A DNA stretch of 64,000 nucleotides from Candidatus Babeliales bacterium (GTDB taxonomy: Bacteria > Babelota > Babeliae > Babelales > JANWKD01): the NCBI GenBank assembly GCA_963762115.1, contig CAVXJH010000006.1:64001-128000 (forward strand), given 5' to 3'. Under the pieces are notes generated by a model. It was not told the DNA's origin. It ran no database searches and worked only from the letters and a program-made list of their open reading frames with translations. The number at the start of each line of letters is the position of its first letter. Position 1 is the stretch's first letter. The translations under genes and the position numbers were made by a program. Positions 1,519-63,981 of this stretch are shown one piece after another.

Positions 1519-2805
1519 ATGATTAATTTCAAACAATATACTTTACTTATATGCATACATATTTTTTTTGTTCCTCAATTTTCGAATGCAATGGAACTTA
1601 TCATACCCGAAGAAAAGCCTAATGATACAAAACAAGAAAAACCACAAGAAATTAAACAACCTCTTTCATTAAAACAATGTTGTTTTGATGGACTGCTCAA
1701 AGAAGAAAATAAGGAAAAAGTAGCCCTTCAACTTCAAAAAACTGTTTTGCCAACAGAACTGATGCAAGAATTTACTAGTGAAGTTGGTCAAAAAGGGTCT
1801 GTTGCTTATATTACACATATTGCACCCGCATTGCCTCAAACCGTTTATCCTGATATAGGCTTAGAACTTTTATGTTCACGTGTCGATGACAAAGCGCAGC
1901 GAAAAAACAGTATAGAAGCGTTATTAAAACACACAAATGATAATGAGCCTATTACTTCAATTTTACATGGTATACATGCATGCCTTGATACGATACAGGG
2001 TGAAAGTAGCACAAAAAAAGAATTATTTATGATGGGTGCAAGTCATCCTTTTGTGCATGCAACATTTCTTAATTTCTTATTTTCAAAGGGTATTGCTCCC
2101 GATGAAAATGCTCTTGAAATATATCTTAATGCTCTTGAGATTGAACGTCCAAAAATAATGATAAAGTTTCTAAATAATATAAAAACTAATCAAGATTTTT
2201 TTGATGATATATTACAAAAAGAATTTTTCAAAAAAAGGTTTATGCATCTTTCGTCCGATGATATACAAAGGTCCTTTGCCCTACGTAATTCCTATAATGG
2301 GGCATATAAAAATGTAGAGAAGTTATTACAAGTCGGGCTTCGTCCAAATCCTACAGGGATAAACTTTTGTGTCATAGATTATAATTCTTACTTCGTCGAT
2401 AAGGAGACCGTTTTTAAGCATTTTTTAAATAAATTAACAGCATTGCGGGGCGAGCGTCAATTAAATCTTGAATATTTAACTATGGCTCTTGATGATTTTT
2501 TTGGTTTAGAAATAGACGAAGATACCTTTGCAATTATAGATACCATTCGTAATTTTTACCGAGATAAGCCAGAACATACTAATATTTCCTATCTCAAAAC
2601 AGAACTTAAAGATCACCCATTCGCTCAAAAAATGCCTTTATTTGAGCAAATGATCGTGGAAACCACTGAATTTTATCATGATATACTGCGCCTTCTTATG
2701 CCCTATTGCAAAAACGAACTGCAACAGCATAAAGAAGATCTCGAAGAAGAATTTCAGATGTCATTAGAAGAATTAGAAAAATTGTGTGATGATCAAAAAA
2801 AGTAA
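1519..2805 (+). CDS. Secreted hypothetical protein with BC-box-like motif (putative effector)
   Basis: Signal peptide ending SNA|ME; PLSLKQCC...LPTEL motif; 428-aa ORF. Confidence 0.75.
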   Translation: MINFKQYTLLICIHIFFVPQFSNAMELIIPEEKPNDTKQEKPQEIKQPLSLKQCCFDGLLKEENKEKVALQLQKTVLPTELMQEFTSEVGQKGSVAYITHIAPALPQTVYPDIGLELLCSRVDDKAQRKNSIEALLKHTNDNEPITSILHGIHACLDTIQGESSTKKELFMMGASHPFVHATFLNFLFSKGIAPDENALEIYLNALEIERPKIMIKFLNNIKTNQDFFDDILQKEFFKKRFMHLSSDDIQRSFALRNSYNGAYKNVEKLLQVGLRPNPTGINFCVIDYNSYFVDKETVFKHFLNKLTALRGERQLNLEYLTMALDDFFGLEIDEDTFAIIDTIRNFYRDKPEHTNISYLKTELKDHPFAQKMPLFEQMIVETTEFYHDILRLLMPYCKNELQQHKEDLEEEFQMSLEELEKLCDDQKK

Positions 2806-2824
2806 TTTCAAAGTTATGCGTTTA

Positions 2825-3202
2825 TTAAGAATTCTTCAATGAAGATGCAAGACTATACGATCTCTTTTTTTTAGATGGGTCCGCTACAACAAAAAACTCA
2901 TTTTCCGTCCATTGTTGACATAATGCACGCGCTGTTCTTGGTTGAATATGGAATGCTTTTTCAACATCATGCGCGGTGATAAATTTTTTCTTCTTAAAAA
3001 ATTGAACTGCTTTTCGCTGACGAACATCAAAATAAGGTAACTTCTTAGAAGCATTAGAGAGATCACTTTGCTCAACAATTTTAGCAACTTCTTCTAATGT
3101 TAAACGATTACCTGACATGCGAGTAGAATAATAAATAGATTCGATACGAGCGATTTTTTTTAAGTGCGCAAGCGTGACTGGATCATCGTTATCTTCAAAC
3201 AT
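2825..3202 (-). CDS. Fic-family-derived protein lacking the catalytic core (N-terminal helix plus winged HTH)
   Basis: RIESIYYSTRMSGNRLTLEEV resembles the Fic N-terminal region; C-terminal RQRKAVQFF...ITAHDVEKAF...RTAR...RSYSL is wHTH-like; no HPFxxGNGR motif. Confidence 0.6.
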   Translation of the reverse strand: MFEDNDDPVTLAHLKKIARIESIYYSTRMSGNRLTLEEVAKIVEQSDLSNASKKLPYFDVRQRKAVQFFKKKKFITAHDVEKAFHIQPRTARALCQQWTENEFFVVADPSKKKRSYSLASSLKNS

Positions 3203-3214
3203 TCTTTTTTCCTT

Positions 3215-3255
3215 ATGCCATTAACATGCCATTATTATGCCATTAAATGCCATTA
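3215..3255. repeat. Four direct repeats of ATGCCATTA at 11/11/10-bp period, probable operator
   Basis: Copies start at 3215, 3226, 3237 and 3247, just upstream of the start codon (3202) of the wHTH gene. Confidence 0.85.
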
Positions 3256-3382
3256 AAAATCAAGTATTCTTTTTTTTAAAAAACTATGTATTGATCGAAT
3301 TTAAACCAAAAGATTTTTTTAGAGATCATGAAGTAAAATTTTAGATTGTTTATAAGGCTCATCACCAAAACTATGATAATAA

Positions 3383-4339
3383 TCAACAATAAAGTGGCGG
3401 TAAGATCTTATGCCAAAAAGATGACGGTAGCCGATTTTTTAGCTCTTTTTCTGCCTTTTTCAATTTATAAATTCGCCAAGCCAACTTCATGCGAGCATGA
3501 TTTGTTGGATGTGTCGCAGTAGGATCATAATTATGAGGAGCTATTGTTATAAAATTCTTCTCAGCAAGAGCTCTTGCACACTCAAACGAATCACTACACG
3601 CCCCCAGAATGATGTCAGCTTCAGTTTCTATCGCACGGTTAAACTTATTAAATTCTTTATTATCTTTAGGAAATTTATCAATGTTCAATTGGTCCATTAT
3701 TTCATTTTTAACAAGATATGTTTCTAAGTAATGTTCTGCATAAATATGTTGCTCTTCATGCAGGAGAATACCTTTTCTGGTTAAGCGTTTTTCTTGTTTA
3801 AAAAAATCATCAAGATATAAATGCGATGAAGGCTCGGCTGTTAAGGTTGACTCTGAATTTTTGTCTGAATAATCTGCTACAAAATCTCTTGTAACTCCGG
3901 TAGATTTTGTATGTTTATCTTTCCTAAATTCTACAGAAAAATGAGCAGAGAAGTGATCTTCAACTTCCTTTATTAGCTCAGAAGGGAAATCTTCATGAAT
4001 ATGAACTATGAGGACATGGTCAGATTTTTTAGGTTTAATTTTTTCTATAAATTCTTCAACTTTAGAAATACCTTCTTGAGTGAGATATTTATTATCTTTT
4101 AAAAGCGTTAATGCCTTTTGTTTTTTTTCTTTAACAAGATTCCATGCACATTCACATGCAGAAAGATCATTTTCAAGCAGAAGTTGCGCTAATTTTTTAT
4201 ATTCAGATTCCGGAGCATTGATATCTATCTTTTTTATTCTTCGGCAAAAATGATAAGGCTTTTCTCTTTTTTTCTCCATCGCTTGTAGAGATAAACAAAA
4301 TAGAAAAATATATATAAGAAATATTTTCTTATTTTTCAT
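3383..4339 (-). CDS. Secreted M48-like zinc metallopeptidase
   Basis: Signal peptide LQA|ME; HEEQH (HExxH), ETEAD and THPTNHAR motifs typical of M48. Confidence 0.75.
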   Translation of the reverse strand: MKNKKIFLIYIFLFCLSLQAMEKKREKPYHFCRRIKKIDINAPESEYKKLAQLLLENDLSACECAWNLVKEKKQKALTLLKDNKYLTQEGISKVEEFIEKIKPKKSDHVLIVHIHEDFPSELIKEVEDHFSAHFSVEFRKDKHTKSTGVTRDFVADYSDKNSESTLTAEPSSHLYLDDFFKQEKRLTRKGILLHEEQHIYAEHYLETYLVKNEIMDQLNIDKFPKDNKEFNKFNRAIETEADIILGACSDSFECARALAEKNFITIAPHNYDPTATHPTNHARMKLAWRIYKLKKAEKELKNRLPSSFWHKILPPLYC

Positions 4340-4889
4340 TTGAATCATTAAAGTGTGACTTTAAGTGCCATCCGATTGCGATTCCACCTACTGTTCCCAA
4401 TAAGCCAAGTCCAGCAATAATGCCAAATTTTCTTTTTTGTGCTTTTTCACCTTCTTTTAAAGCCTCAAAAAAGTAATCGCATCCATCAGAAAATTGTTTA
4501 AAGGCCACAGCAGAATCATTTCTGCTTGATCTTTGTATGCCGGTAACATTATCTTCTATAATTAATTCGGCAACAGGCAAAATAGATAAATCATTGAATG
4601 CTTTGATTTCTTTTCTAGCGTTTAAATACATTTCAAAGAATTTATTACGTTGAGCGCTAAAATTTTTTTTTACTTCTTTTAATTCTTGAGCTGTTAAATT
4701 ATTAACTTCTTCTTTTAGTATCGCCGAATTATGAAAATTATTTGTTCTTGTTGTTTGTAACAAATTTTTTGAATTCCGGGTTAATAAATTTAATCCCGCA
4801 CGTTGATTTCTAATGCGTTGCATGCAAATGATTGGAGAAATTGTTGTTGCTAAAATTAATGAAAAAAATAACTTATTTTTTAAGTTCAT
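4329..4889 (-). CDS. Secreted hypothetical protein with presequence-like N-terminus and C-terminal TM helix
   Basis: Signal IIC|MQ; Arg-rich acid-free segment; C-terminal FGIIAGLGLLGTVGGIAIGW. Confidence 0.7.
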   Translation of the reverse strand: MNLKNKLFFSLILATTISPIICMQRIRNQRAGLNLLTRNSKNLLQTTRTNNFHNSAILKEEVNNLTAQELKEVKKNFSAQRNKFFEMYLNARKEIKAFNDLSILPVAELIIEDNVTGIQRSSRNDSAVAFKQFSDGCDYFFEALKEGEKAQKRKFGIIAGLGLLGTVGGIAIGWHLKSHFNDSNEK

Positions 4890-5052
4890 AAAGTGACCCC
4901 TAATGCAGATTTCTTTTAAATATAAACTATGTAATTATACTAAATTTCTCAAAAAAATTAAAGTTTGATTCAATTTTTTTCATACTGTTTTGGCTATTTC
5001 GCACATTCAATTGGCATTATATATTTTATTAAGAACTTCACTAATGATCAAG

Positions 5053-5128: not shown

Positions 5129-5521
5129 ATGAAAACTAAACTTAATCTCTGTATGCTCTTATTATTAGGAGCAACAATAAACGGTGTAAAAGCCATGGAA
5201 ACACAAAAAAAAGCTCAAACAAAAACAACTACTTGTGCAAAATTTCTTTATAGCCATCCTTGGCTTAGCTCTGTAGCTACGAACGTGATAGCATTTGCTG
5301 CAAGCTGGCGCTTTAATAAGCGATTCCATACTTATGCAAATTATGAGCTTAACCTCAAAGAGGGGGCTACTGCTCTTGTTTATCTTCCCTTTGTTACCCT
5401 TCCTGTTTGTGCAACTATTTTTAAGCGATTTGGTCACAACCGCCTGATATCTTCAGGAACGCTACATCACAAGAAAAAAATACATTCAATTTGCAAGCCA
5501 GGATGTAAAGAGCCTTCTTAA
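5129..5521 (+). CDS. Secreted/membrane hypothetical protein
   Basis: GGAGG RBS; signal VKA|ME; two hydrophobic segments. Confidence 0.6.
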   Translation: MKTKLNLCMLLLLGATINGVKAMETQKKAQTKTTTCAKFLYSHPWLSSVATNVIAFAASWRFNKRFHTYANYELNLKEGATALVYLPFVTLPVCATIFKRFGHNRLISSGTLHHKKKIHSICKPGCKEPS

Positions 5522-9209: not shown

Positions 9210-9464
9210 CTAATCAGTAATAGCAAGATAACAGCAAAAACATCCAAGACAAGGCGCCATCACACAGATACTTGCCTTCTCTGTCAACCAATAACAATCT
9301 TCATCTCCCCAGCAGTTACCACAATCTTTTTGATGATTCATGGAAACAGTTGAAGGTCTTTGTTTAGGTTGAATCAATTCTTTTTGTTCTTCTTTATTCA
9401 TGCCTGATAATGACATACATAAAGGTGAAATAATCATACAGATTAAAAATAGTTTCTTTTGCAT
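9210..9464 (-). CDS. Small secreted protein with Cys-rich hydrophobic tail
   Basis: Signal LSG|MN; tail ICVMAPCLGCFCCYLAITD; AAAGGA RBS. Confidence 0.6.
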   Translation of the reverse strand: MQKKLFLICMIISPLCMSLSGMNKEEQKELIQPKQRPSTVSMNHQKDCGNCWGDEDCYWLTEKASICVMAPCLGCFCCYLAITD

Positions 9465-9650: not shown

Positions 9651-11123
9651 ATGAAAAAACTACTATTTTTTATATTTTGTTTAACAATGATAGCTCAAAA
9701 AAATCTCCATTCTATGGAGAAATTTACTGAAGAATCCGAAGATAAATCTGTTGAAATGGTAAACTTAGTTGACGTACTACCACATGTTGCTGGCGATGAA
9801 TTTTTAACTCGTATCGTACAATTAGCAACACATTTAAATACACCAATTGAATTTAATAAAGAGAGAACATCATGCTTTCAATTTGGCCCACAGCAAATTC
9901 TCGATAAAGGCTCACATCAAGTTACTTTATATTCTAGAAATGAATGGGCTCCTTCATGCAATTTAAATCCCGCACAAATTGTATTTGTAGACCAAACAGA
10001 TAAAAATCATTGCTCATTTAACGTTTAATGTTGGCACAGAGATGTTACTCAATTTGGCATTGATAGATATGATGAAACTAAATATAGAATCGATGATGAT
10101 GCACAAAAGAAACGCTTTATGGCATCTACCTCGCTTGAAACAAAAACACCTTTTTTTGATGGCCCTAGCGATGATGGCATATTTATTATTGCAGGAAATT
10201 CAAAACATAAAGAGGAGGTAACTAAAGAAAAAGTAGAAGATACCACTGATATAGCAGAAATACCACAAGAACAAGGATGCTTCTCACGTATATTTAGTTC
10301 CAACAAAAAAGAGAACCCTATCCCCATTCTAAGCCGTCAAAAAGTTTATGAATATTATATAGGAAAATTTAATCAGAAAAGTACCAATCTATACAGACAA
10401 AATATTTATGACAATAAAGAAAACAATGAATTTAATGTTACATCGCCTAGAATTATAGGCACTCTTTCAGCTCTTGCGCTTTGCAAAACAAGAAATTGGA
10501 ATCCAAAAGATCCTACCGATAACAAAAATCGTTTTGCACTTGCAGATGATAAGGGAATATCAATCTATGAAATAAAAGAAGCTGTTAAACAATCTAAGCG
10601 TCATAAAAAAAATAAAGCTGTGATGTCTGTACAACGCATTGGGTTTGGAGAATTATTCAAGCAAAATGAAGATATTATTAATTCCACCCGACGAAGAATT
10701 ATGAATAGCGACGCTACCATAATAAAGCTTAGTTTTATAACACCAAAAACTTTGTTGGGGCTTACTCATTCAGGAAAATTATTTAGTTTTGCATTAGATA
10801 CACAATTCAACACCATTACATCTGCACCACACACTATTAAAAATAAAGAAGGACAAGAATTAGTTGTGCATAATTTTGCTCTTAATCCTTGCAAACCTAA
10901 TCAGGTTGTTCTTTGTACAAAAGAAGGCAACATTCTTTATTTGAATCTTAAACATTGTATGAAACCAGCTCAGGGAAAAAAAGCAAAACTTTTGATGAGT
11001 GTAGAAAAACTTCCTGATTCAATGTGGTTTTATGATACAAGACTCTGCTTAGGAAGTTATTTTGCACTTGAAACTGAAAATTATACCTTAGCTGATTTAG
11101 ATTTAAGACTGGAAAAAAAATAA
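9651..11123 (+). pseudogene. Paralog of 11181..12500 interrupted by a single in-frame TAA at 10026-10028
   Basis: GTT TAA TGT aligns with GTT CAA TGT (V-Q-C) in the paralog; the frame continues into the ORF starting at 10119. Confidence 0.8.
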
Positions 11124-11180: not shown

Positions 11181-12500
11181 ATGAAAAAACTACTATTTTT
11201 TATATTTTGTTTAACAATAATAGCTCAAAAAAATCTCCATTCTATGGAAAAATTCATTGAAGAATCCGAAGTTAAACCTTTCGAAATGATAAACTTAGTT
11301 GACGCGCTACCCAATGTCGAAGGCGATGCATTATTAATTCGAGTCATACAATTAGCCACACATTCAGATGCTAAAATCGAATTTAGCAAAGATAAAACAT
11401 CATGCTTTCAATTTGGCCCACAGCAAATCTCTGGTAAAAAATCAAATAGAGTTACCTTATACTCAGATGAAGAATGGACTCCTTCAATCAACTTAAACTC
11501 CACGCAAATCGAACAAGATGAAGAAGACTATTTATTTACTGTTCAATGTTACCACGAAAATGTTACTCAATTTGGCATTATTGGCATTGATAGATATATT
11601 AAAACTAAATATAGAATTGATGATGATGCACAAGAAAAGCGCTTTATGGCTTCAGCATCACTTGAAACAAGAAAACCGTTCTTTGATGGCCCTACCAATG
11701 ACATATTTATTATTGCAGGAAATTCAAAAGAAATTAAAGAATATGAATATTATATAGGAAAATTTAATTCGAAAAGTACCGATCTATACAAACAAGATAT
11801 TAATGACATTTTAAAAGAAAATAATAAGTTTAATGTTACATCGCCTAGAATTATAGGAACTCTTTCAGCACTTGCGCTTTGTAAAACAAGAAATTGGAAT
11901 CCTAATGATCCCACCGATAACAAAAATCGTTTTGCACTTGCAGATGATCGTGGAATATCAATCTATGAAATAGAAGAAGCTGTTGAACAATCTAAGGATA
12001 AAGCTGCTATGTCAGTGCAACAAATTGGTTTTGGCCTATCTATAATAAAGAAAAAAAACATAACAGAAAAAGATACATGTATTGAAGTTCCTGTATTACT
12101 AAAAAAAATTAGCTTTATAACACCAAAAACATTATTAGGGCTTTCAGAGTCAGGCAGATTATTTAGTATCGCCTTAGACAAAAAATGGGGTACAATTACT
12201 TTAGAACCGCAAACAATTAAAAACAATCAAGGAGAAATATTAGATTTTCATACCTTTGCACTCAATCCTTGCAAACCTCATCAAGTTGTTCTGTGCACTA
12301 GGGGATGCCAAATCCTTTATTTAAATCTTAAAAATTGTTTAAACCCTGACGAAAAAAAGGTAAGATTTTTGATGCCAACAAAAAGACTCCCTGATTCAAT
12401 GTGGTTTTATAACACCAGACTTTGCTTAGGGAATTATTCTGCTATTAAAACTGAAAATTATACCTTAGCTGATTTAGATTTAAGACTGGAAAAAGATTAG
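11181..12500 (+). CDS. Secreted hypothetical protein, possibly beta-propeller; tandem paralog
   Basis: Signal LHS|ME; high identity with the upstream copy. Confidence 0.8.
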   Translation: MKKLLFFIFCLTIIAQKNLHSMEKFIEESEVKPFEMINLVDALPNVEGDALLIRVIQLATHSDAKIEFSKDKTSCFQFGPQQISGKKSNRVTLYSDEEWTPSINLNSTQIEQDEEDYLFTVQCYHENVTQFGIIGIDRYIKTKYRIDDDAQEKRFMASASLETRKPFFDGPTNDIFIIAGNSKEIKEYEYYIGKFNSKSTDLYKQDINDILKENNKFNVTSPRIIGTLSALALCKTRNWNPNDPTDNKNRFALADDRGISIYEIEEAVEQSKDKAAMSVQQIGFGLSIIKKKNITEKDTCIEVPVLLKKISFITPKTLLGLSESGRLFSIALDKKWGTITLEPQTIKNNQGEILDFHTFALNPCKPHQVVLCTRGCQILYLNLKNCLNPDEKKVRFLMPTKRLPDSMWFYNTRLCLGNYSAIKTENYTLADLDLRLEKD

Positions 12501-12832: not shown

Positions 12833-15421
12833 TTATTTTTTTTCAAAAACAGAAAGACCTGATAAACCTTCTGCGCTAAGATTATGAGGATGGACACGTT
12901 GCGCCGACAAACTATTTATTAAATTATTCATTTTTTCTGTTGTTAACTTTTTTTCTATTTTAACTTGATAATGAGATGGAGAGTCGTCATCAAGAAATAT
13001 ACCTTTTCTAATTCTCATTTTTGTACTCAAAACACTGAGCATTGTTTGTGCTTCATCGATAGCAGGTTTTGTTATTTCCGGCGATAGAATATCTCTATTT
13101 TCTTCTGCTAGTTTCCGCAAACAAACAATTTGATCACCTCCATTGCGAAGAACTTCATGAGTTATAAATTTTTTATGAGCCTTACACGAATCAACTATCG
13201 CCCGTAAAGAATCAATATAAAGACCCGTAGTCTGCTCAATTGCTCTATTGTTTAATTCCTCTTTGGTAGATTTTGCAAACTGCATGCGAGGAAGCCTTGT
13301 TATAAAATCTATTCCTTGTTGAGGGTGATCAAATGAATCTATAATTTTTTTGTTATCTTCAAGCGCCGAAGTTTGATCTAACTGTTCAATTTCTCCTTGC
13401 GAAAATAATTTCATAAGATCGGCAGAGGAATGTATTTCAGCTAAGGCGCCTTTTGCTCTAACAATTTCTCTTACTCTTTGCTTAACTCGTTGTTTAAATT
13501 TTGTTACTTTTTTTTCACCATACATTCTTTCAGCTTCACTATCAATAAGACTAACAAGTTTTCGTGGGCGATTACTGCAAAGATCTTTATTAATGCTTTG
13601 TTTTAAGGCAACAATTGTTGCTTCTACTGAAAGAATGTTGTCCTGATTACTTTCAGATATTCTTAATCTGTGTTCAATATCAGTTTTTTGTATTTTTTTG
13701 AGAGCAACAAGATTCCTGACATTTTTACTTAGCATATGATTAAACGTGTCAATCGGAAAAGAATTATCAATGGTAATCAAATATTTAGTTGCTTCATCAT
13801 TAAATCGACTTACCTGCACATCTAGATCTTTACAATTTGAAACTCGATCGACAAACCAATCCACAAGATTTTTCTTAATAAGATCATGAATTTTTTCTAA
13901 CGTCGACACATCATACCCACTTAAAAAATCATCATTTATAACACTTTCAAAGGGTTCATTTGCATATATAGGTGGTTTTATATGTTTCTCGACAAATGCT
14001 TCAGCAATCACTTCTGGTTTTTCATTTTCAATATAATCTTCAATTCTACAAGTAAGTAATCTTTGCTCGAAAGAAGTAAATGTTGCAAATATCGGATGTG
14101 TTTTCAAAAAGTTCAAATCTGCTTTTCTACCATTTTCTCGAGCAGCTTCCAATGAAAGCTTATAAAGAAGCTGTTCAAACGTAGGTTCAGCAAGAGTATT
14201 AAATTCAGTAAATTTTACGCCATCATCCTTATGAGTATAAAAATCTGAATCAACAAGATGATTATTATCCAAAGATTGACTATAAAGAGTTGGATCAGAC
14301 CGCATATGAAAAATTTTTTTTACTTTTCCATCAAAAGAAACATTATTGAGTGCATTGTTATGGATAACTATGAGCTTATTTCCGGGCGCTATCGCCACTA
14401 CATCGTCATATTGTTTACGCAGTGATTCCTGCTTAACATCAAACAAAAATCCTTCTTTTTCATCTTTTTTTAAAAAAATAAATTTACTGTCCGGTGAAAT
14501 AATACTTTTACTCACGGGCATCTCAACTGCAATTTTTTTTGGCACAAAAAAATCTGCACACCGTGAATCAGGAATATTTTGATCCCATTTATAGACTTCA
14601 CCTTTGCTATTAACTGAAACAAAATATGAACCATTTGGTGCACATGACAGATGAGTTATAGGATCTTTTTCAACTCCTTTCAAGAAAAATTTCTTCCATT
14701 TACCTTTTCTTGCAAAAGGATTATCGTATTCAATAGTTATTCCCTCAATAGAACCATCAGCATAACCAACAAAAAGAACGTTATTATCAGCCGAAAAAGT
14801 AAGAGAATGAAACAAAGCAGCATCAACCTTTCTTCCTGTAATACTGGGAAATAAATGTTGGTTGAGAATAATAAATAGCTGGGTATCACTAGCAACTGCT
14901 ATGCAACTATTATCTTGCGTTGAAGTAATATATTTAATTTTTCCCTGACAAGGATTGTTTCTACAGGTTAGTATTCTCCCATCTAAAATACCAATAGTAT
15001 CAAAAGGCTCATCATACCACATGCAAAGTTTCGCATTATACCATTGAACATCAACATGGCCAGGTACGAATGCTCGACATTTCCATGTTGGCTGCGTATG
15101 AGCTTTCCAATATTGCAATAAGCAATTAGGTGAAATCTTCAGATGTTCTAATTGCTCAAACATTTCTTCAATTACTTGCTTTGACGCAAGAGGATCTTTG
15201 GTATCAATATTATCTTTAACGTTATTTGCTATTGCACCTAAACAAATAGCTCGAAGACTTTTCATAAAACCTGAATTGGGATAAAAATGATGGTAATCTT
15301 TTCTACTATCAAATTTTTCTTGAGGAACCGTTTTTTCAGGTTCAGACATCCCAAAAAGCATGTAAGGAATAATGGCAGCAGTCATCAACAGAATAATTAA
15401 AAAGTGCGAGCATTTTTTCAT
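12833..15421 (-). CDS. Secreted WD40-like beta-propeller protein with BC-box-like motif and helical C-terminus
   Basis: Signal LFG|MS; KSLRAICLGAI; WD-like ITHLSCAPNGSYFVSVNSKGEVYKWD. Confidence 0.75.
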   Translation of the reverse strand: MKKCSHFLIILLMTAAIIPYMLFGMSEPEKTVPQEKFDSRKDYHHFYPNSGFMKSLRAICLGAIANNVKDNIDTKDPLASKQVIEEMFEQLEHLKISPNCLLQYWKAHTQPTWKCRAFVPGHVDVQWYNAKLCMWYDEPFDTIGILDGRILTCRNNPCQGKIKYITSTQDNSCIAVASDTQLFIILNQHLFPSITGRKVDAALFHSLTFSADNNVLFVGYADGSIEGITIEYDNPFARKGKWKKFFLKGVEKDPITHLSCAPNGSYFVSVNSKGEVYKWDQNIPDSRCADFFVPKKIAVEMPVSKSIISPDSKFIFLKKDEKEGFLFDVKQESLRKQYDDVVAIAPGNKLIVIHNNALNNVSFDGKVKKIFHMRSDPTLYSQSLDNNHLVDSDFYTHKDDGVKFTEFNTLAEPTFEQLLYKLSLEAARENGRKADLNFLKTHPIFATFTSFEQRLLTCRIEDYIENEKPEVIAEAFVEKHIKPPIYANEPFESVINDDFLSGYDVSTLEKIHDLIKKNLVDWFVDRVSNCKDLDVQVSRFNDEATKYLITIDNSFPIDTFNHMLSKNVRNLVALKKIQKTDIEHRLRISESNQDNILSVEATIVALKQSINKDLCSNRPRKLVSLIDSEAERMYGEKKVTKFKQRVKQRVREIVRAKGALAEIHSSADLMKLFSQGEIEQLDQTSALEDNKKIIDSFDHPQQGIDFITRLPRMQFAKSTKEELNNRAIEQTTGLYIDSLRAIVDSCKAHKKFITHEVLRNGGDQIVCLRKLAEENRDILSPEITKPAIDEAQTMLSVLSTKMRIRKGIFLDDDSPSHYQVKIEKKLTTEKMNNLINSLSAQRVHPHNLSAEGLSGLSVFEKK

Positions 15422-15748: not shown

Positions 15749-16408
15749 ATGCAAACTATAGCAAAAAACTTACATACTTTTTTGTTAATAACAATATCTT
15801 TTTTTACGATAAACTACCTACAATCCATGCAACAGGAAGCACTATTAAGAAATGAACTTTCAACACTTGAAAAAAAATTATTCGATCTACAAACAGCTCT
15901 CAACACTTCTATAATACCTTCAACCCCAAAAAAACAGCCGATTCATCTTGTCACTCCAGGAGCATTAAATTTTGAAAATATACCTTACTATGTTTCAGGC
16001 GCAGGATCATTACCAAGCTTTACAAATACTTTTATAAAAAATATTGAAGATGAATTAATAATTTCATTCAAAAAAACATCTAACATAGAAGAAATAGGTT
16101 CATCAAACATAGGATTTTATTTTAGTTCTCTAATTACTTCAAGATTTACTAATTTAATTAAAGGTACTGTAACTAAATTGCAACAAGCAAGAGCTAGTCA
16201 ACCTAATAACATTATTCTTATAATGTTTACCGGAGAAAAAAAATCACTTATTAAAAAATATGAAGATTCAAAAGAGGCTGAAGAGTTAACAAAAACACAT
16301 ATATATCCTTTTATATTTCAGTCGAGTAAAGAAAATATCTTCGATAGAGATTTTAACAAAAAAAAATTAATAAAAGTCATTGAAAGCCTTGAGTTACTCG
16401 GAACATGA
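15749..16408 (+). CDS. Secreted hypothetical protein (cassette cargo)
   Basis: AAAGGA RBS; signal LQS|MQ; N-terminal Leu heptads. Confidence 0.7.
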   Translation: MQTIAKNLHTFLLITISFFTINYLQSMQQEALLRNELSTLEKKLFDLQTALNTSIIPSTPKKQPIHLVTPGALNFENIPYYVSGAGSLPSFTNTFIKNIEDELIISFKKTSNIEEIGSSNIGFYFSSLITSRFTNLIKGTVTKLQQARASQPNNIILIMFTGEKKSLIKKYEDSKEAEELTKTHIYPFIFQSSKENIFDRDFNKKKLIKVIESLELLGT

Positions 16409-16576: not shown

Positions 16577-17005
16577 TCACTCGGAGCATGATCCTTTAAA
16601 ATTAATATTCTCCAACATTCTCAACGTTGCAAAATATTCATAAATTCGAGAACAAGTCTCCTTAGCTGTTTCTTCATTATAATCATGTGTTGTTGCATTT
16701 CTTGCTTCAGAAATATCTAAGAGTTTTTTTGTTTCTTCTTGAGTTATAATATTTAATAAAAAACATTCACGAAAAATTGCTTTTGGTGATGCAAGCTCGA
16801 CGGAATGAAGTTCTTTAATATACTGCTGAAGAAACTTCCAACACATTTCATAGCAAATTTCAAAATGCTTAACCAATGAAGCGACAGCATTTTCTAATTC
16901 ATCTGTTGCGGCATTAGCAGCATATTTACTTGAAAATTTTAAACTCCGTTCCAATGCACTCAATGATTTTAAAAACTTTTGGTGTGCAAAAACTAACTTT
17001 TCCAC
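16577..17005 (-). CDS. HEPN / nucleotidyltransferase substrate-binding protein (HI0074-like toxin)
   Basis: FEICYEMCWK, SPKAIFRE and RNATTH (Rx4H) motifs; overlaps the MNT gene. Confidence 0.9.
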   Translation of the reverse strand: MEKLVFAHQKFLKSLSALERSLKFSSKYAANAATDELENAVASLVKHFEICYEMCWKFLQQYIKELHSVELASPKAIFRECFLLNIITQEETKKLLDISEARNATTHDYNEETAKETCSRIYEYFATLRMLENINFKGSCSE

Positions 17006-24438: not shown

Positions 24439-25206
24439 ATGAAATTTCTAGTTTATATTTTCTATGCATTCTTGTTCTTACCAGTCTTTCTCATACAAAC
24501 CATGGAAAAAGAAATTGAGATTTTTCAACCAAAATCATTACAAGAACTATGCATAAAATCATTTTATGCAAATTATCCCCAAGGTAAGAAAAAAAACAAT
24601 AACAATAAAGGGGCTGATAAAACTTTTTCTTCAGAAAATATTAATAATCTCAATAAAAAACTTCCCCTCGAACTGTACCCAAACATCGCATATCATGTTT
24701 TAAAAACCAAAAAAATTGCCATGCATCGCAAATATGCAATCATTTGTTTCTTGAGAGATCATCCAGCTAAACTGAATGAACAATCAAAAAAAATACTACA
24801 GTTTTTTGCTCGCTTTATTGATGGTAGGAATTATTATTGCAGTCGATTATTATCAGTTGCTCTTAAAAACACGGTTGAACCATACATATTTAACTATCTA
24901 TTACAAAGTGGTGAAAAGCCTGACAATCTCATCGTTTGGCACCTTATTGGTGATGAACAACATCATCCAAATATCCATAATTATATGATCGAAAAATTAG
25001 CTTTTTTGCTTAAAGAAAATCCGCCCCTTGAACCTAAAAATCAAAATTCAGAAATAATGCCTCTAGAATATGCACAAGATATGCTCAAGCGTTGGAGCGA
25101 TAAAAAGGGCACAAGTTCATTTGAAGAACAAGAAATTGAAAAATATAAAGATTTTTATACCCAAGTTGTCGCTTTATTCAATACATACTCACAAAAAGTA
25201 GAATAG
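24439..25206 (+). CDS. Secreted hypothetical protein with BC-box/cullin-box-like motif
   Basis: Signal IQT|ME; PKSLQELCIKSF...LPLEL. Confidence 0.72.
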   Translation: MKFLVYIFYAFLFLPVFLIQTMEKEIEIFQPKSLQELCIKSFYANYPQGKKKNNNNKGADKTFSSENINNLNKKLPLELYPNIAYHVLKTKKIAMHRKYAIICFLRDHPAKLNEQSKKILQFFARFIDGRNYYCSRLLSVALKNTVEPYIFNYLLQSGEKPDNLIVWHLIGDEQHHPNIHNYMIEKLAFLLKENPPLEPKNQNSEIMPLEYAQDMLKRWSDKKGTSSFEEQEIEKYKDFYTQVVALFNTYSQKVE

Positions 25207-25312: not shown

Positions 25313-25507
25313 ATGAATTTATTTTCTGTTATAATTTTTGTGTTCTTATTTTTACCCATTCATCTTCACGCAATGGATTATCCTGGTGTATCTAACATAA
25401 AACAACAAATCCATTTTTCTCCATCTCGTCCAACAATTACTTCTTCGCATCAAATAAAACAAACACCTAACAAAGCAACACCGATGAACAAGAAAAAAAT
25501 CAACTAA
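25313..25507 (+). CDS. Small secreted protein or gene remnant
   Basis: Signal LHA|MD; 64 aa. Confidence 0.5.
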   Translation: MNLFSVIIFVFLFLPIHLHAMDYPGVSNIKQQIHFSPSRPTITSSHQIKQTPNKATPMNKKKIN

Positions 25508-38307: not shown

Positions 38308-38711
38308 AAAATAGTTTTCTTTTTTTACTGTTTTTTTGTTTTTATACATCTTTAGAAAGTATGGAGCGATTTAAAAAGTCGCTCCCTTTGATCTCTAAAA
38401 AAGCCACTTCAAATAATTCAACCAACGATCTTGATCATACTCTAGCTTTAGCGCGCAAAAATCATGATTTCAGCATCATTGCACAATTACCTTGTATCAT
38501 TAAAAACGGTTCACCACAAAAGATAAAAAAAACAAATAAAGCAATTCGACGCCATTTTCTAAAAAGAATCGACAAAGCTACATCACAAGAAAAATTAATG
38601 GCTTTGCATAGAGAAATCTTAGAAAAAATAGATTTTATTGAAAATACCCATGAATATGAATTACTTGGCCAAAGCCTTTATAACAAATGGCATGAGATTT
38701 ATAAAAGATAG
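38295..38711 (+). CDS. Secreted hypothetical protein
   Basis: Signal LES|ME; overlaps the secA stop. Confidence 0.65.
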   Translation: MSRIKNSFLFLLFFCFYTSLESMERFKKSLPLISKKATSNNSTNDLDHTLALARKNHDFSIIAQLPCIIKNGSPQKIKKTNKAIRRHFLKRIDKATSQEKLMALHREILEKIDFIENTHEYELLGQSLYNKWHEIYKR

Positions 38712-39449: not shown

Positions 39450-39734
39450 TTATTGTTTTAAAGGCTTTATTAAAGAAGGGTTATTATAATTAATTTTGTT
39501 TCTAAGCCACATTTGATTATTTTTTGCTTTTTCAGAAGCTCTTTGATCTTCACTTTTTAACTTCTTTGAAAGATTTTTATTTTGATGATGTTTAGCTTTT
39601 TCCAAAACACGTAACAAAATAGTATTTTCTGCACTATTTTTACTTCTAATATATTCTAAATCTTTAGATTGTTGCATACAAAAACTTGAAACAACAAATA
39701 ATCCTGCAAAAAAACTTAGTGCCGTCTTTTTCAT
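39450..39734 (-). CDS. Small basic secreted protein
   Basis: Signal SFC|MQ. Confidence 0.6.
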   Translation of the reverse strand: MKKTALSFFAGLFVVSSFCMQQSKDLEYIRSKNSAENTILLRVLEKAKHHQNKNLSKKLKSEDQRASEKAKNNQMWLRNKINYNNPSLIKPLKQ

Positions 39735-49105: not shown

Positions 49106-49954
49106 CTACTTTTTTTCTTTTCGTGCAGCTTCAAGACGATTTTTCAGGTATTTTCGCAGCTTTACTTGTGTTTCATGCAGAGTATCCAGAATTTCTTTGC
49201 TATATTTTTTTATCCAAGCTTTTCTTCCCGTTTTTTTTGCAAGATCTTGCAACGCTTTATTGGGATAATAAAAAGCATTTTCAATATCTTTAACTAATTG
49301 ATTAAAATTGATAAAGATTTGAGATATAACACCCGGTTGATCAACAACATCAAGAAATTGTATATTAAATTTTAAAGCATTAGCAAGGCGCGATAGAGTT
49401 AACACCGTCGGTTCATTTTGAAATTTTATAAATTGATTGCGAGCATTGGTCACTGATTGATCAAATAACGTCTGTTGAAATTCACGATTTTTTTGATTAA
49501 TATAGGGCTCTATAAGTTCTTTTTGGTCTTTAAATGTCATATAAACTGTTTCATGAAATTCTTCTTGTATTGATGAATTAACACCACGATTTTTCATATT
49601 TTGATTAATACGAACTATTTTTTCATCAATATCAGAAAGCATATTTCTGAGCTTTCGTAATTTTTGTAAATCTAAATCTTCTAAATTTTCAAAAAGCAAT
49701 TCATGAAAAATCATTTCTATAAGTTGATCTAACCTATCTTCCGAAGGAATTTTGGAAAAATCATCAAGCAATCTTGAAAAAGATGCCAACTGTTGAAAAA
49801 TATCAAAACTAGGAATTTGTTTAGTTTTTTTTAAAGCATTTTCAAGATCTTGTAACTGTTGATCAAGTTGCATCAAAGTTGATGAAAGTTCTTGCTGTTT
49901 TTGCATCCCAAAAGCAGTAGATACAAAAAAAGTAACGATAAGTATTCTCTTCAT
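49106..49954 (-). CDS. Secreted helical hypothetical protein
   Basis: AAAGGG RBS; signal AFG|MQ; Leu heptad segment. Confidence 0.7.
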   Translation of the reverse strand: MKRILIVTFFVSTAFGMQKQQELSSTLMQLDQQLQDLENALKKTKQIPSFDIFQQLASFSRLLDDFSKIPSEDRLDQLIEMIFHELLFENLEDLDLQKLRKLRNMLSDIDEKIVRINQNMKNRGVNSSIQEEFHETVYMTFKDQKELIEPYINQKNREFQQTLFDQSVTNARNQFIKFQNEPTVLTLSRLANALKFNIQFLDVVDQPGVISQIFINFNQLVKDIENAFYYPNKALQDLAKKTGRKAWIKKYSKEILDTLHETQVKLRKYLKNRLEAARKEKK

Positions 49955-54637: not shown

Positions 54638-56998
54638 CTACGAATTCTCTTTAATATTGGGCTCTGCAATACTTTTCTCAGAATCATTAGTTTCATCATC
54701 AACTTCAAACTTCATCATCTCTTTAAGCTTAACATGAATAGATCCCATAATACTGCTCCTCGGCTCATTCGATTCCTCAACCATTCTATGCTCCTCCCTA
54801 ACTCCATTTCTCTCTTGAATTTTTATAATCTCATTCGTTTCATTATCAACTCTATAACCTATTTCCTCTATACCAAGCCAATCACGCTGTATCGACTCTC
54901 TAATCCTCTCAGTAAAAGGTGCATAGCCAACTCTATGATCTATCTTTACACCAGTCATCTTTGCCCTACGCTCATCTATCGCTTCATCCAAAGATCGAAA
55001 AATACAAACACTATCATTCATTTCATCATCAATATCATTTTGCTCTTTTTTTTCTCCCTGCAAATCGTCTGTACCTTCAAAATCATATCCCTTATTTACA
55101 ATTTCATCCTCGAAATAAGATTTTCTTTTTACAATATTTTTTTCAGATAAACTTTGCTCAACAACTAAATCAATATCTGTTTCATCTATCGACGCATGAC
55201 TTTCTTGAGAATCGCTCAAAGCATCAAATTCAGCAGCTAAACTATGTTCATCATGCTTTTGAACTCTATTTTTTCTTTGTAGCATTCTTTTTAAATAATT
55301 TATTTTTTCTTTAGTTTTTGTTTTGATCTTTTTAAAACTGGAATCGGTTTCTTTTCCTTCAATCGGTGCATTACTATGATGCATTTTTGCTTTAGGATTG
55401 GTTGTATCTTTTGGAGTACTATCTTTTTCTGCCTCTTTTTCACCATCACTTTCATCATCTGACGAATATTTTAAATCAGGCATTGCATCAAAAGTTTCTT
55501 GAACTATATTTTCAAAAAGTTCTTCATTGGCTACTTCATTAGGCATATTTTCTTCATTAGAATCAGATTTTTTATTCTTTTGATCCATAGCTTTTCTTTT
55601 CAAAAATTTTATAACTTCATGATGGCCTTTTGAAATTGCTTGCAATAAAGGTGAATCTTTTCCCAATTTGCTATCAATTTGAGCGCCACTTTTTACCAAT
55701 TTTTTAACAAGTGATAAATATCCTTTTCCTGCAGCATAAAAAAGAGCGTCGTAATCTTGCTTATCTTTTATGGTAATATCAGCTCCAAGATCAATAAGAA
55801 GTGCGGCTATTTTAGGGTTTCTGAAGTTAATGGCTTTAATCAGCGGCGTTGAACCTTGGTCATCTTGCTCATCAATATTAGCACCATGTTCAATTAATAG
55901 TCTCACAATCTTAAAGCATGTCTTTAAAATTTGATTGTGAGCAGCACTTTGTTCAATCGCATAAGCTTGATTCCTTTGAAGGATAATGCGCGATTCATCG
56001 TCTAAGGGAATATTATTGTCGATATTCTTTTCAATATTATAAGCCGCAATCATTAACTGCATTTTGTTCTGTGGAATAATATATTCAATACTTGAAGTAG
56101 CAATCATTAAGGGTGTTGTGCCATTTGTAAGAGGTAGATCAATAAAAATTTCTTTATGATTTGCCAATTTTTCTACGATTCCAAAATTACGATTTTGACA
56201 AGCTGTTGCAAGCGCCGTCCAACCATCCACCTCTTGTGCATTAACGTCAATAGTTTCATTCTCTAACAATCGTGTTACTTCTGCTAAATCATTCTCGCAA
56301 ACGGCGAGTATTAATGGAGGACAACTTGAAATAATTTGTGGTTTTTTTGTTGAAAACCCAAGATCGGCTTCTTTTTTTCGGTAAATTGCCTGAATTTTTC
56401 TTTGAATTTCTACAGAAATTTTACGTTTATCAAGAAGATATTTTACCGTATTTATACTTGCTTGAACTTTTTTCTTAAATTTCCCCTCTTTCTTTGTCTT
56501 CTTAGCTTTTTTAGGTTTTTTTGTATGAGCGGTTGCTTTTTTTGTGGGGTTATTAATAGGCTTTTGAGTTTTACTCATTTTTTCAGAAGCTAATAATCGA
56601 TCAACAATATAATCAAAATGATATGTGCGAGCACAAGAAAGAGCCGTTTCTCCTTTTTCATCTGAAATATCACCACGAGCTCCATGATCAATGAGATCTT
56701 CAGTGATTTTAAAATTACCTAATCTAATAGCTTCCAATAATGCCGTTGAGCCATCAAAAGCTTGTGCATTAATGTCAGCCCCGAATGCAATAAGTTTATG
56801 AACAAGTTCAGCATCTTTTGTTTGAACAGCAAAAATTAATGGCGTAATATCACCAATATTTTCATTGAGATTACCACCTTCATGCATCAATCTTTCAATT
56901 TTTTCTCGTAGATCCTGATTATCCATTTCCATGCCGAAAATGGGTAATGAAGTAGCAATAGATAGAAAAATGGTTAAGAAAATAATATGTTTCTTCAC
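54638..56998 (-). CDS. Secreted ankyrin repeat protein with Lys-rich insert and acidic disordered tail
   Basis: AGGAG RBS with GTG start; signal IFG|ME; multiple TPL/TAL ankyrin repeats. Confidence 0.9.
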   Translation of the reverse strand: MKKHIIFLTIFLSIATSLPIFGMEMDNQDLREKIERLMHEGGNLNENIGDITPLIFAVQTKDAELVHKLIAFGADINAQAFDGSTALLEAIRLGNFKITEDLIDHGARGDISDEKGETALSCARTYHFDYIVDRLLASEKMSKTQKPINNPTKKATAHTKKPKKAKKTKKEGKFKKKVQASINTVKYLLDKRKISVEIQRKIQAIYRKKEADLGFSTKKPQIISSCPPLILAVCENDLAEVTRLLENETIDVNAQEVDGWTALATACQNRNFGIVEKLANHKEIFIDLPLTNGTTPLMIATSSIEYIIPQNKMQLMIAAYNIEKNIDNNIPLDDESRIILQRNQAYAIEQSAAHNQILKTCFKIVRLLIEHGANIDEQDDQGSTPLIKAINFRNPKIAALLIDLGADITIKDKQDYDALFYAAGKGYLSLVKKLVKSGAQIDSKLGKDSPLLQAISKGHHEVIKFLKRKAMDQKNKKSDSNEENMPNEVANEELFENIVQETFDAMPDLKYSSDDESDGEKEAEKDSTPKDTTNPKAKMHHSNAPIEGKETDSSFKKIKTKTKEKINYLKRMLQRKNRVQKHDEHSLAAEFDALSDSQESHASIDETDIDLVVEQSLSEKNIVKRKSYFEDEIVNKGYDFEGTDDLQGEKKEQNDIDDEMNDSVCIFRSLDEAIDERRAKMTGVKIDHRVGYAPFTERIRESIQRDWLGIEEIGYRVDNETNEIIKIQERNGVREEHRMVEESNEPRSSIMGSIHVKLKEMMKFEVDDETNDSEKSIAEPNIKENS

Positions 56999-60980: not shown

Positions 60981-60983
60981 TAT

Positions 60984-61487
60984 TTATAATTCCATATCAA
61001 ATATATCATCAGAATCTCCATCATCACTATCAGGGATCATGTGCATTATAGCATCACTGCTCTGACTCATTCTACTTCTTATCCTTGATTTCTTTTGATT
61101 GTTATCAGTATTTTTAGAAGATACTATAGGATTATTTCTAACAGGGCTGCTACTTTCAGGCGAATTTTTCTTTACGGTAAATAAACCTGTTGTACCTTTA
61201 ATTAAAAGAATTATTTCATCCTCGGGTAATGATGATATCAAAGTATGTCCATATTCATTAATTCCAGGTATGTTCTTTAGCCTCTCACGAAGATCGTTCA
61301 TTACTTCAAAATGTGGAAAAAATGGGCAGTCTTCTAAATCACCTTTTTCAAATGATTGTTTTGCAATTTTCATTACATCAATTGCTTTGCCTTTTTCTTC
61401 CATACAATTAAGCAAAGTCATTGAATTTATTACTACCAAAAACATTAAAACAGATCTTTTTTGTGCCATCATTAAAATCTTTCCCAA
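60984..61487 (-). CDS. Secreted hypothetical protein with Ser/Asp-rich tail
   Basis: Signal LNC|ME; tail DSDDGDSDDIFDMEL. Confidence 0.6.
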   Translation of the reverse strand: MGKILMMAQKRSVLMFLVVINSMTLLNCMEEKGKAIDVMKIAKQSFEKGDLEDCPFFPHFEVMNDLRERLKNIPGINEYGHTLISSLPEDEIILLIKGTTGLFTVKKNSPESSSPVRNNPIVSSKNTDNNQKKSRIRSRMSQSSDAIMHMIPDSDDGDSDDIFDMEL

Positions 61488-61788
61488 AAATTGTTACGGT
61501 ATTATACAACAAACTTGTGAATAGTATTACTACTTTCATAATAAGTATCACTAGAATACTAAAATTTTATAGCACACACGAGTTTTTTATCAAATCCATT
61601 CTATAAAACTCCTATTTTAAGGTTAAAATACCCTTTATTCGACAATTTTTACTCAAAATCACCCGAAAACACATTTTTTAAGCAAATTATCGCCTAACTT
61701 TATTTATATTAGAAATATTTACAAATTTAAATATTAATATATAATTAATAGTATGAATACTAAAAACACCTTAAAAAAGAGGATTCCA

Positions 61789-63627
61789 ATGAAGAAATCA
61801 ATCAAAAAAACTGCCTTTTTGGCAGTAATTTCACTTTTTACCCTGAATTTCTTTGCTTTAGGGCTCTATGCCATGGAGCAAAAAACTTCACAACCTGCAA
61901 TAAGACAACCCTTATCATTGACTCAATTAGCTGCGAATGCCTATATCAAAAATGTGCAAAAAGACAGCAAAAACAGTAAGGAATCTGCTCTTGCTATAAA
62001 AGAAGAATTAGAAACAAAATGTCCTCTTATTACCCAAGAAATTGAACAAATTCTTAATCAACGACTCAGTCAAAATAATGATATGTTTATTGAACAAGAA
62101 TTATCAGGGAAAGTTATTGCCATATTACCCGAATCAAATCAAATAGTAACAGAAGAAAATCTAGGCGATGATAACAACAGCATTAGCTTTTGGAAACTCT
62201 ATTCACATGACAGCAACAATTCAAACGGATTACTTTCAGGAGTTGCTGCTTCTATGCCAGGGGCAACACAAGCTTTAGCTGCAAAATCTGTTATTGATGA
62301 TGGTAAATGGGTCAGAGCATATACTCTAGAATTACCAGAATATTTCAAAACAATGTTTGTAAATGAGAATATGGTGGTTTGTGGTATTGCAACTGAATCT
62401 GAAAATGATGATCAACTTTTTGAGCAAAGAAAAGTTGCCTTGTTTATCAGAAGCAAAAATGCATTTGAACTGAAAGAAATTATAGAAATGGAACATTCTA
62501 TTGTTGATTGTGCATTTTCAGCGCAAGATAATTCTCTTGCTTTCGCTTTAGATAATAATACTGTTGTATTCTGGCGTTATAATAAACAAGCTGAAGAATG
62601 GCAAGCAGGTGAGATAATTGTTAATGCAGCACCAACACAACATATAATAACAAATATTGCTTTTTTGCATCAATCCTATGAAGAAACGCCACTGTTTTTA
62701 ATTCATTATATGCCATATATACCATTCGATGAAATTATTGATGAAAATACAAATATTAAACCTTCAGCAGTGACAATATGGCAAGCTAAAGATGCAAAGT
62801 GGTGTTTATTAAAAGAACTACTAAAAGCAAATTATATTGCAATGCATAAATCTGCCAACTCAAAATCTATTACACTTCATGCAACACACTATAATGAACA
62901 AAATCAGACAAGCCATAAAACAATTTTCTTGCAAGAAAATACAGATCGAACATCATCATATACAAGCAAAGAATTCGCAGACCACAGACAATTTTCACCC
63001 GATGGAACACTTTCTATTTATAAAAAAGAAGATGCAACTATAATACCATTCAAAACATCATTTAAAATAGTCGATGTTGCTACAGAAGATATTCTTAAAA
63101 CCATTGGAAAAAACTATTTTTATTCACCGATTTTTATCAATAATGACAATCTTGCAATACAATGGAGCAATTGCACCAAAATAGTATCATTAAACTGTTC
63201 AACAAATTTTGCTTTGTGTAATCAACTATTACAAAAAGCAAAAGAACAAGAAAACGTAAATCTCGATGATTTACTACAATCATCACTTGTTACACAACTT
63301 CAACCAGATGAAAAAAAATCTGTTATTGATAAAGCACAAAAACTAAAATCTGAACAATCATTAAAGGGAAAAATACAACAATTTAGAACTAAGTGTAGAT
63401 CATGGTCTTATAGAAATCCGGACACATACGGTATAATGATGCTTGGTACTTGGCTTGGCATAAGCTTAACTACGGTTTGCATTCATAATAAAATTGATCC
63501 AAAATTTTCTTATTTTCCAAATATATTAAATGACCCCATAAACAAAGGAATTTTGATTGGAACAGTTCATAGTGCTTTTGGTTTCGCGCTAACAAGGCGA
63601 ATTAGTAAATTTTTCTTTGGATCATAA
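61789..63627 (+). CDS. Secreted WD40-like beta-propeller protein with BC-box-like motif and C-terminal TM segments
   Basis: GAGG RBS; signal LYA|ME; PLSLTQLA; IVDCAFSAQDNSLAFALDNNTVVFW; two C-terminal hydrophobic helices. Confidence 0.75.
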   Translation: MKKSIKKTAFLAVISLFTLNFFALGLYAMEQKTSQPAIRQPLSLTQLAANAYIKNVQKDSKNSKESALAIKEELETKCPLITQEIEQILNQRLSQNNDMFIEQELSGKVIAILPESNQIVTEENLGDDNNSISFWKLYSHDSNNSNGLLSGVAASMPGATQALAAKSVIDDGKWVRAYTLELPEYFKTMFVNENMVVCGIATESENDDQLFEQRKVALFIRSKNAFELKEIIEMEHSIVDCAFSAQDNSLAFALDNNTVVFWRYNKQAEEWQAGEIIVNAAPTQHIITNIAFLHQSYEETPLFLIHYMPYIPFDEIIDENTNIKPSAVTIWQAKDAKWCLLKELLKANYIAMHKSANSKSITLHATHYNEQNQTSHKTIFLQENTDRTSSYTSKEFADHRQFSPDGTLSIYKKEDATIIPFKTSFKIVDVATEDILKTIGKNYFYSPIFINNDNLAIQWSNCTKIVSLNCSTNFALCNQLLQKAKEQENVNLDDLLQSSLVTQLQPDEKKSVIDKAQKLKSEQSLKGKIQQFRTKCRSWSYRNPDTYGIMMLGTWLGISLTTVCIHNKIDPKFSYFPNILNDPINKGILIGTVHSAFGFALTRRISKFFFGS

Positions 63628-63657
63628 ACACTAAGAAACACATTCAAAACAATTTAA

Positions 63658-63700
63658 AAAAATAACCTGAGTTTTTCAGAAATAAAACTCAGGTTATTTT
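63658..63700. terminator. Bidirectional terminator hairpin
   Basis: AAAATAACCTGAGTTT...AAACTCAGGTTATTTT between convergent genes. Confidence 0.85.
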
Positions 63701-63705
63701 AACTA

Positions 63706-63981
63706 TTACTCTTCAGACTGACATGATCGTTCAAACATAAGATCTTCACTTGATGAAATATACACATGATCATCTTTTTTATAAGACTTTACTGTTGTAT
63801 CAATTTGTTTTTTGTCTTTAAACATTCGTTTTACTGATAAAAATGTATGGATGTTATCAATAATGTTATGCAAGAATGTATCATATTCTATTTCTGTCAC
63901 TAATTCCATCGACAAACTAGAACAAAAACATAAAAATGCGCATATCGTAACAGGCAAAAAAAACCTTTTATTCATACACAA
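63706..63981 (-). CDS. Short secreted hypothetical protein, possibly truncated
   Basis: Signal SLS|ME; 91 aa. Confidence 0.5.
   Translation of the reverse strand: MCMNKRFFLPVTICAFLCFCSSLSMELVTEIEYDTFLHNIIDNIHTFLSVKRMFKDKKQIDTTVKSYKKDDHVYISSSEDLMFERSCQSEE

Follow-up and report, generated by a model that had tools for sequence, protein, structure and literature searches.

Many predicted Sec substrates of a Candidatus Babeliales bacterium carry a methionine directly behind the signal peptide, and this methionine is mostly followed by an acidic or amide residue (Met-[EQND]). This +1/+2 rule is real and strongly non-random, and apparently it has not been described before. It is seen in 18 open reading frames (ORFs) of a 64,000-nucleotide stretch, here called the window, which corresponds to C6:64001-128000 of a genome (G000; 1.53 Mb, 95% complete) belonging to Ca. 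Babelota (Dependentiae). This placement follows from its SecA, for which a Ca. Babeliales record (87%, best segment) and a TM6 record (67%) ranked above every other record listed. Ca. Babelota are intracellular parasites of protists. Signal peptides are found in up to 44% of their coding sequences (PMC6561590). As no injection system has been reported for them, the question addressed here is which of their proteins reach the host and how these survive there. Judging from sequence, we give about even chances to the explanation that Met-[EQND] is a host-like protective cap, which would shield host-bound proteins from N-degron decay.

Methionine at +1 and the rule at +2

The junctions of all 18 window ORFs are as quoted in the preliminary description, in frame and stop-terminated (Table 1), and the -1 residue is small, as had been claimed (A/G/S/C/T in 18/18). 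Their signal peptides are 16-28 amino acids (aa) long and the +2 residue is E in 11, Q in four, and N, D and S in one each. Genome-wide, 1428 genes were called, and cleavage sites were scored by a home-made -3/-1 rule that is blind to +1 and never rewards Met there; cleavage sites throughout are predictions of this rule, independent of SignalP. By the blind rule, +1 is Met in 139 of 475 signal peptidase I (SPI)-like proteins, whereas each other position between -6 and +8 has 7-27 Mets, apart from -1, where the rule allows none. The identical pipeline returned 1/60 in non-Babelota loci (each of at least 8 kb, one 16S locus and two Babelota loci being excluded). A looser first filter gave 167/607 with Met at +1 versus a 1.8% background, and in a residue-by-residue control the ratio for Met was 10.0, that of the runner-up residue 3.97. 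A separate, Met-aware rule yields a larger count, 229/525 (161 unrelated clusters), which includes false positives because the same rule also returns 156 Leu and 108 Ser sites, a high false floor; the true number in G000 is probably about 140-190.

The residue following the Met is constrained as well. At +2, D/E/N/Q account for 118 of the 139 sites (85%; E alone at 83 sites) versus 36% at +3 to +8, a more than twofold difference, whereas small residues, which would permit aminopeptidase cleavage, make up 4% versus 30% downstream and hydrophobic ones 4% versus 19%. The residues found at -3 (L/I/S/A/V/T) and -1 (A/G/S/T/C) obey the signal-peptidase rule, and a basic n-region, a hydrophobic h-region, small -1 and -3 residues and a length of 16-30 aa agree with a Sec/SPI signal under the home-made rule; Sec cleavage is thus predicted just before the motif Met. 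Acidic residues early in the mature part are in any case good for Sec export, but the excess at +2 over +3 to +8 is more than twofold.

The preliminary description had raised the possibility that the Met is the real translation start. It is not a start codon, because Shine-Dalgarno (SD) sequences of at least 4 nt precede only one of the 139 internal Mets, versus 64 of the 139 upstream starts (46%); the controls, taken from non-Met proteins, gave 130/261 for upstream starts and 6/261 for control codons. Although an in-frame ATG is present in every case, it is extremely improbable that the Met serves as a second, internal start giving a cytoplasmic isoform, as its SD frequency is like that of control codons, not of upstream starts, and the -1 and -3 residues follow the signal-peptidase rule. 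One may also consider the Met to be a neutral relic, i.e. the old start Met kept when a signal-peptide cassette was fused before a whole gene, and the J domain of two DnaJ proteins does start only a few residues past the Met. We regard this as very improbable: the SD-led starts native to G000 are rich in MK, and only 5/230 are ME, versus 83/139 at the motif; enzymes of bacterial type with signal-like leaders mostly lack the Met (see below); and only 10 of 116 pairs with similar leader DNA join different clusters of unrelated proteins. Moreover, presence or absence of the cap persists between paralogues that are less than 45% identical: of 103 such non-ankyrin pairs, 26 are both capped, 65 both uncapped and 12 differ (shared state in 91/103). 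A shared signal cassette was likewise rejected, the leaders of unrelated proteins having little DNA similarity.

Distribution among proteins and genomes

Protein classes were assigned by hand, aided by Pfam searches with 311 of the 521 proteins that were candidates for a signal peptide (left out were the 195 lowest-ranked, mostly short ones and 15 ankyrin proteins typed with our own hidden Markov model). The motif is biased to host-type proteins: it is carried by 13/13 WD40 proteins, 3/3 DnaJ proteins and about 23/34 ankyrin proteins (20/31 by eye plus 3/3 via Pfam), in contrast to 5/41 envelope proteins (a set with many lipoproteins and anchored proteins; two of the five sites look mis-set), 3/46 bacterial-type enzymes and 0/8 beta-helix proteins. 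Met at +1 is thus much rarer among envelope proteins than among WD40 proteins, and in the window it is missing from BamD (22479) and from the two beta-helix proteins, as first reported. The two-residue rule may therefore be seen as a leaky but usable predictor, providing more than 100 ORFan effector candidates per genome. Many normally cytoplasmic enzymes also have signal-like N-termini in this genome (DNA polymerase I, glutamine synthetase, glucokinase, MutS-like proteins, HADs, methyltransferases, GNATs; examples at L135:15394-17793, L130:9617-11005, L132:8249-9316 and L158:12928-15135), and some of these may be wrong start calls.

The class bias also bears on a different explanation, in which Met-[EQND], whether acetylated or free, would be read in the periplasm as a sorting tag for a second export step, by the type II system or by vesicles. 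It is the sole feature common to the 161 unrelated folds. On the other hand, BamA is tagged, many likely exported proteins are not, family f11 is rich in signal-bearing ankyrin proteins without the tag, and type II substrates are usually recognised in the folded state. Type II is the only secretion system reported in the phylum (PMC4378268, where a signal peptide is also given for 79 of 126 ankyrin proteins); two gspD genes were described (PMC4776705) and G000 has two secretins. On balance, we consider a sorting tag unlikely.

Within Babelota the motif is widespread, yet not universal. In 40 random tiles from 35 genomes 23 of 203 blind sites had Met, metagenome loci gave 13/59, and the ankyrin islands of G079 (18/24 Met-aware, 15/23 blind) and G090 (19/28 Met-aware, 10/27 blind) are rich in it; in contrast, G041 largely lacks it, and the five Met sites of G040 look like a Met at -3 of a later site. 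This pattern is relevant to the suggestion that a signal peptidase favouring Met at P1', possibly one of two lepB copies, is responsible. G000 does encode SPI (two PF10502 matches), as a tandem lepB pair (L106:16435-18203, G000:C3:458081-459687), both with Ser/Lys-type catalytic motifs. However, the motif-rich G079 and G090 have one lepB match each and the motif-poor G041 has two, so that a dedicated signal peptidase was rejected on the grounds that the motif does not track lepB copy number; such a preference would also explain neither the class bias nor the +2 rule, and we judge it improbable. As a separate observation, families f11, f12, f13, f16 and f17 have longer LepB frames (about 400 aa) than most other families (about 300 aa), a split roughly like that of the anchored acetyltransferase described below.

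Outside the phylum, 6-kb tiles were taken from 20 of the 51 alphaproteobacterial genomes that have an ATP/ADP translocase; they gave 2/28 blind sites with Met, a sample too small to decide. By eye, three sites were noted there: VQG|MD in G469, IDA|MS in G528 and SFS|MN in G273 (loci L302:2844, L319:2273 and L307:4541; the bar marks the cleavage site). Convergence in other protist symbionts is possible. An atlas look-up of one leader, a plasmid tblastn, a WD40 homologue search and Rfam gave nothing useful.

A putative protective cap and a candidate acetyltransferase

An effector exported via Sec is deprived of its start Met and has to cope with the host N-end rule. In the explanation that we favour, SPI would cut just before the motif Met and the protein would then be delivered to the host cytosol, probably via the type II system. 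There, a Met before an acidic or amide residue would be spared by methionine aminopeptidase and would form no Met-hydrophobic degron, in contrast to a bare Glu, Asp, Gln or Asn left by signal peptidase, which would be arginylated and degraded. Finally, N-terminal acetylation would seal the cap, the best candidate enzyme being P0042 of the bacterium itself; this is the weakest step, which taken alone is possible but doubtful. According to PMC8037982, Met is cleaved off only when a small residue follows, Met plus a hydrophobic residue can act as a degron, a Glu uncovered by signal peptidase becomes arginylated on reaching the cytosol, and acetylation prevents the loss of Met in front of Asn or Gln. 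The +2 spectrum fits escape from both eukaryotic routes, because 4% of residues are small, 4% hydrophobic and 85% acidic or amide. Acetylation of the cap by host NatB is doubtful since NatB acts mainly co-translationally, and an anchored bacterial acetyltransferase would be a better candidate.

P0042 is a GNAT among the signal-bearing Pfam matches, encoded at G000:C6:47313-47891 (L125:9049-9630), some 16 kb to the left of the window. Of 151 genomes, 123 have a homologue, in almost all cases as a single copy, comprising all members of f1-f6, f8, f9, f14, f15 and f18 except for one in f3 (54/55), as against 0/27 in f7, f10-f13, f16 and f17, families in which the motif is largely lacking too; a 20-sequence P0042 profile run on five negative genomes gave only one partial generic match, in one of them. 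An N-terminal membrane helix is present in 139 of 146 homologues, and since basic residues flank it on the N-terminal side in 114 and on the C-terminal side in 7 (N-in), the acetyltransferase domain is predicted to be periplasmic. P0042 is thus an N-in-anchored, single-copy protein that is core to one large Babelota clade. Met-[DENQ] was found in 57 of 295 signal proteins from the 24 genomes with the enzyme (at least one in 15 of them) versus 5 of 157 from the 11 without it (at least one in 3 of them). Like RimI, Naa30 and archaeal Ard1, it has a GNAT fold with intact acetyl-CoA motifs and an LxTRxxN stretch aligned to LEVRASN of RimI, and in a sequence-profile comparison with the PDB 11 of the top 15 matches are labelled N-terminal acetyltransferase or RimI; unlike these enzymes it has the N-terminal anchor and a predicted periplasmic domain, it scores below the TIGR01575 (RimI) cut-off, and its alignment lacks the YY hairpin that is a feature of RimI. 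The anchored enzyme was absent from the five alphaproteobacterial ATP/ADP-translocase genomes examined for it. A further signal-bearing protein, P0080 (674 aa), has two copies of one acetyltransferase domain. That canonical RimI was replaced in one clade could not be supported, as 0/61 genomes had a RimI above the TIGR01575 cut-off. P0042 is best treated as a candidate for the enzyme acetylating the cap, a lead that has the advantage of being one nameable and testable enzyme.

Several points weigh against the cap or its enzyme. BamA, a periplasm/outer-membrane protein, carries LFA|MQ in G000, and Met at +1 recurs in G001, G003, G004 and probably G042 (about 4/19 readable orthologues, family f2); an amidase and a beta-lactamase-like protein may carry the motif too. 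Conversely, likely effectors without it include a MavL-like protein, a histone deacetylase (HDAC), two PLA2 proteins and about 11 ankyrin proteins, and in G041 (f11), with 66 ankyrin proteins in four tiles, Met stands at 5/49 blind sites, mostly inside the signal. As to P0042, polyamine acetyltransferases score equally with N-terminal acetyltransferases in the structural comparison (its model, with a predicted local distance difference test of 86, matches PaiA-like, Naa30, RimI, Ard1 and SpeG structures with similar scores), the PDB profile matches span the acetyl-CoA half only, and the TIGR01575 score is 55.2 bits versus a cut-off of 86.4. The association of enzyme and motif is a single clade contrast from tiles biased to ankyrin islands, and the enzyme-positive f4, f5 and f15 have Met-[DENQ] in only 1/37. 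The gene lies 3' of truA in a housekeeping cluster (20 loci), away from secretion genes, and an acetyl-CoA transporter of the AT-1/AmpG type was not found in G000, which leaves a periplasmic acetyl donor without explanation.

These observations show where the preliminary description went too far. Its proposal of a host-like N-terminus was partly supported, the Met being neither a start codon nor common in envelope proteins; its "effector barcode" does not stand in a strict form, because BamA carries the motif, several likely effectors (the MavL-like, HDAC and PLA2 proteins and about 11/34 ankyrins) do not, and the ankyrin-rich f11 genome G041 largely does without it. Uncapped, signal-bearing proteins include a MavL-like ADP-ribosylhydrolase (L115:13786-15258), a histone-deacetylase-family protein (L114:6003-7088) and two PLA2_B phospholipases (L127:16896-18878 and L104:1842-3881).

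Capped envelope proteins (BamA and two to four others) would be expected if maturation were compartment-blind, any Met-[EQND] product being acetylated as a protection against the cell's own or the host's aminopeptidases, with the effector bias secondary. The core anchored acetyltransferase is in line with this, and the Bacteroidetes Q-rule with its periplasm-facing glutaminyl cyclase is a precedent (PMC5837995). However, the Q-rule holds for at least 48% in every compartment (PMC5837995), versus 13/13 of WD40 and 5/41 of envelope proteins here, and we therefore hold this explanation to be quite unlikely. Extending the protective-cap explanation to most Babelota, one could imagine a periplasmic eukaryote-style line of cleavage and relocated RimI-like acetylation, with Ac-Met-Glu as stability mimicry and possibly as an export tag. 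We consider this somewhat unlikely; if true, bacteria would have their own equivalent of PEXEL processing, acting on hundreds of unrelated effectors.

In favour of the cap, a motif resembling a BC-box follows it in 10/229 proteins versus 2/261 non-Met proteins (shuffle mean 1.1, maximum 6), although the consensus pattern was written after the window examples had been seen. BC-box motifs would act in the host cytosol, and the capped proteins bearing them are candidate Elongin BC/cullin adaptors. They occur soon after the cap at 1519, 12833, 24439 and 61789 of the window and at other loci, some in ankyrin or beta-propeller proteins.

Features of the window and comparison with known systems

Table 1. 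ORFs of the window with Met behind the predicted cleavage site (bar)
Position (strand)	Junction	Signal peptide	Met codon	Remarks
1519..2805 (+)	SNA|MEL	24 aa	1591	ORFan; BC-box-like stretch by eye; no Pfam match
3383..4348 (-)	LQA|MEK		4277-4279	no Pfam match
4329..4889 (-)	IIC|MQR		4821-4823	
5129..5521 (+)	VKA|MET		5195	
9210..9464 (-)	LSG|MNK		9399-9401	small Cys-rich protein
9651..10028 (+)	LHS|MEK			5' part of 11181 paralogue
11181..12500 (+)	LHS|MEK		11244	no Pfam match
12833..15421 (-)	LFG|MSE			beta-propeller protein; BC-box-like motif
15749..16408 (+)	LQS|MQQ		15827	
24439..25206 (+)	IQT|MEK			BC-box-like motif (SLQELC)
25313..25507 (+)	LHA|MDY			64-aa ORF
38295..38711 (+)	LES|MER			directly 3' of secA
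39450..39734 (-)	SFC|MQQ			
49106..49954 (-)	AFG|MQK	16 aa		no Pfam match
54638..56998 (-)	IFG|MEM			ankyrin-repeat protein
60984..61487 (-)	LNC|MEE			
61789..63627 (+)	LYA|MEQ			BC-box-like motif; no Pfam match
63706..63981 (-)	SLS|MEL			

The paralogue of 11181..12500 extends over 9651-11123 with an in-frame stop at 10026-10028 (61% identity in one tblastn high-scoring pair, single frame). Secreted proteins without the motif also exist in the window, namely the ankyrin protein at 7559 and those at 5680, 6056, 6416 and 57205. By eye, a GspE/PilB-type ATPase and a pseudopilin-like gene at 20083-22297 look like part of a type II or type IV pilus machinery, and adjoining nucleotidyltransferase-like and HEPN-like ORFs at 16577-17283 have an MNT-HEPN toxin-antitoxin arrangement.

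We did not find the motif in the literature searched, although supplements of Babelota genome papers and subscription papers could mention the pattern. In their available text, "methionine" does not occur in PMC4378268, nor "methionine" or "motif" in PMC6561590, and that of PMC13515050, on bacterial N-terminal proteoforms, contains no periplasm-facing N-terminal acetyltransferase.

The closest parallel in form is the Bacteroidetes Q-rule, likewise a lineage-specific fixed residue right after the SPI site, which is paired with a membrane-bound, periplasm-facing glutaminyl cyclase as the Babelota motif may be with an anchored acetyltransferase, but which applies to about 70% of substrates (PMC5837995) versus 29-44% in G000. 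Here the residue is Met with a +2 rule, not Gln (139 versus 26 of 475 at +1 in G000), and in contrast to the compartment-blind Q-rule the motif is biased to host-type proteins and patchy within the phylum, with a putative modification; the Q-rule has a dedicated enzyme, whereas the anchored GNAT co-occurs with the motif at clade level only.

NatB is specific for Met-D/E/N/Q starts. The motif shares with NatB substrates, and with termini that escape N-degrons (PMC8037982), the Met-D/E/N/Q start and the avoidance of small and hydrophobic second residues. In NatB substrates the terminal Met stems from initiation on host ribosomes; the Babelota Met, in contrast, lies inside the precursor and would become N-terminal through cleavage by a bacterial signal peptidase. 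In the PEXEL of Plasmodium the second residue is acidic or amide as well (xE/Q/D). There too cleavage creates a new N-terminus, which is acetylated before reaching the host (PMC4382842), as that of Babelota putatively is; in contrast, PEXEL has RxL and plasmepsin V, whereas the Babelota site is an ordinary -3/-1 SPI site with an invariant Met and no RxL. The ASA|FAP plastid targeting of diatoms and related algae uses the +1 residue as a sorting signal (10.64898/2026.03.27.714854) and can serve as a model for the sorting-tag explanation, although it belongs to a eukaryotic ER-to-plastid route and has Phe, not Met. Formally the motif thus works like the Q-rule, and its residues are those of a NatB terminus, but it belongs to neither.

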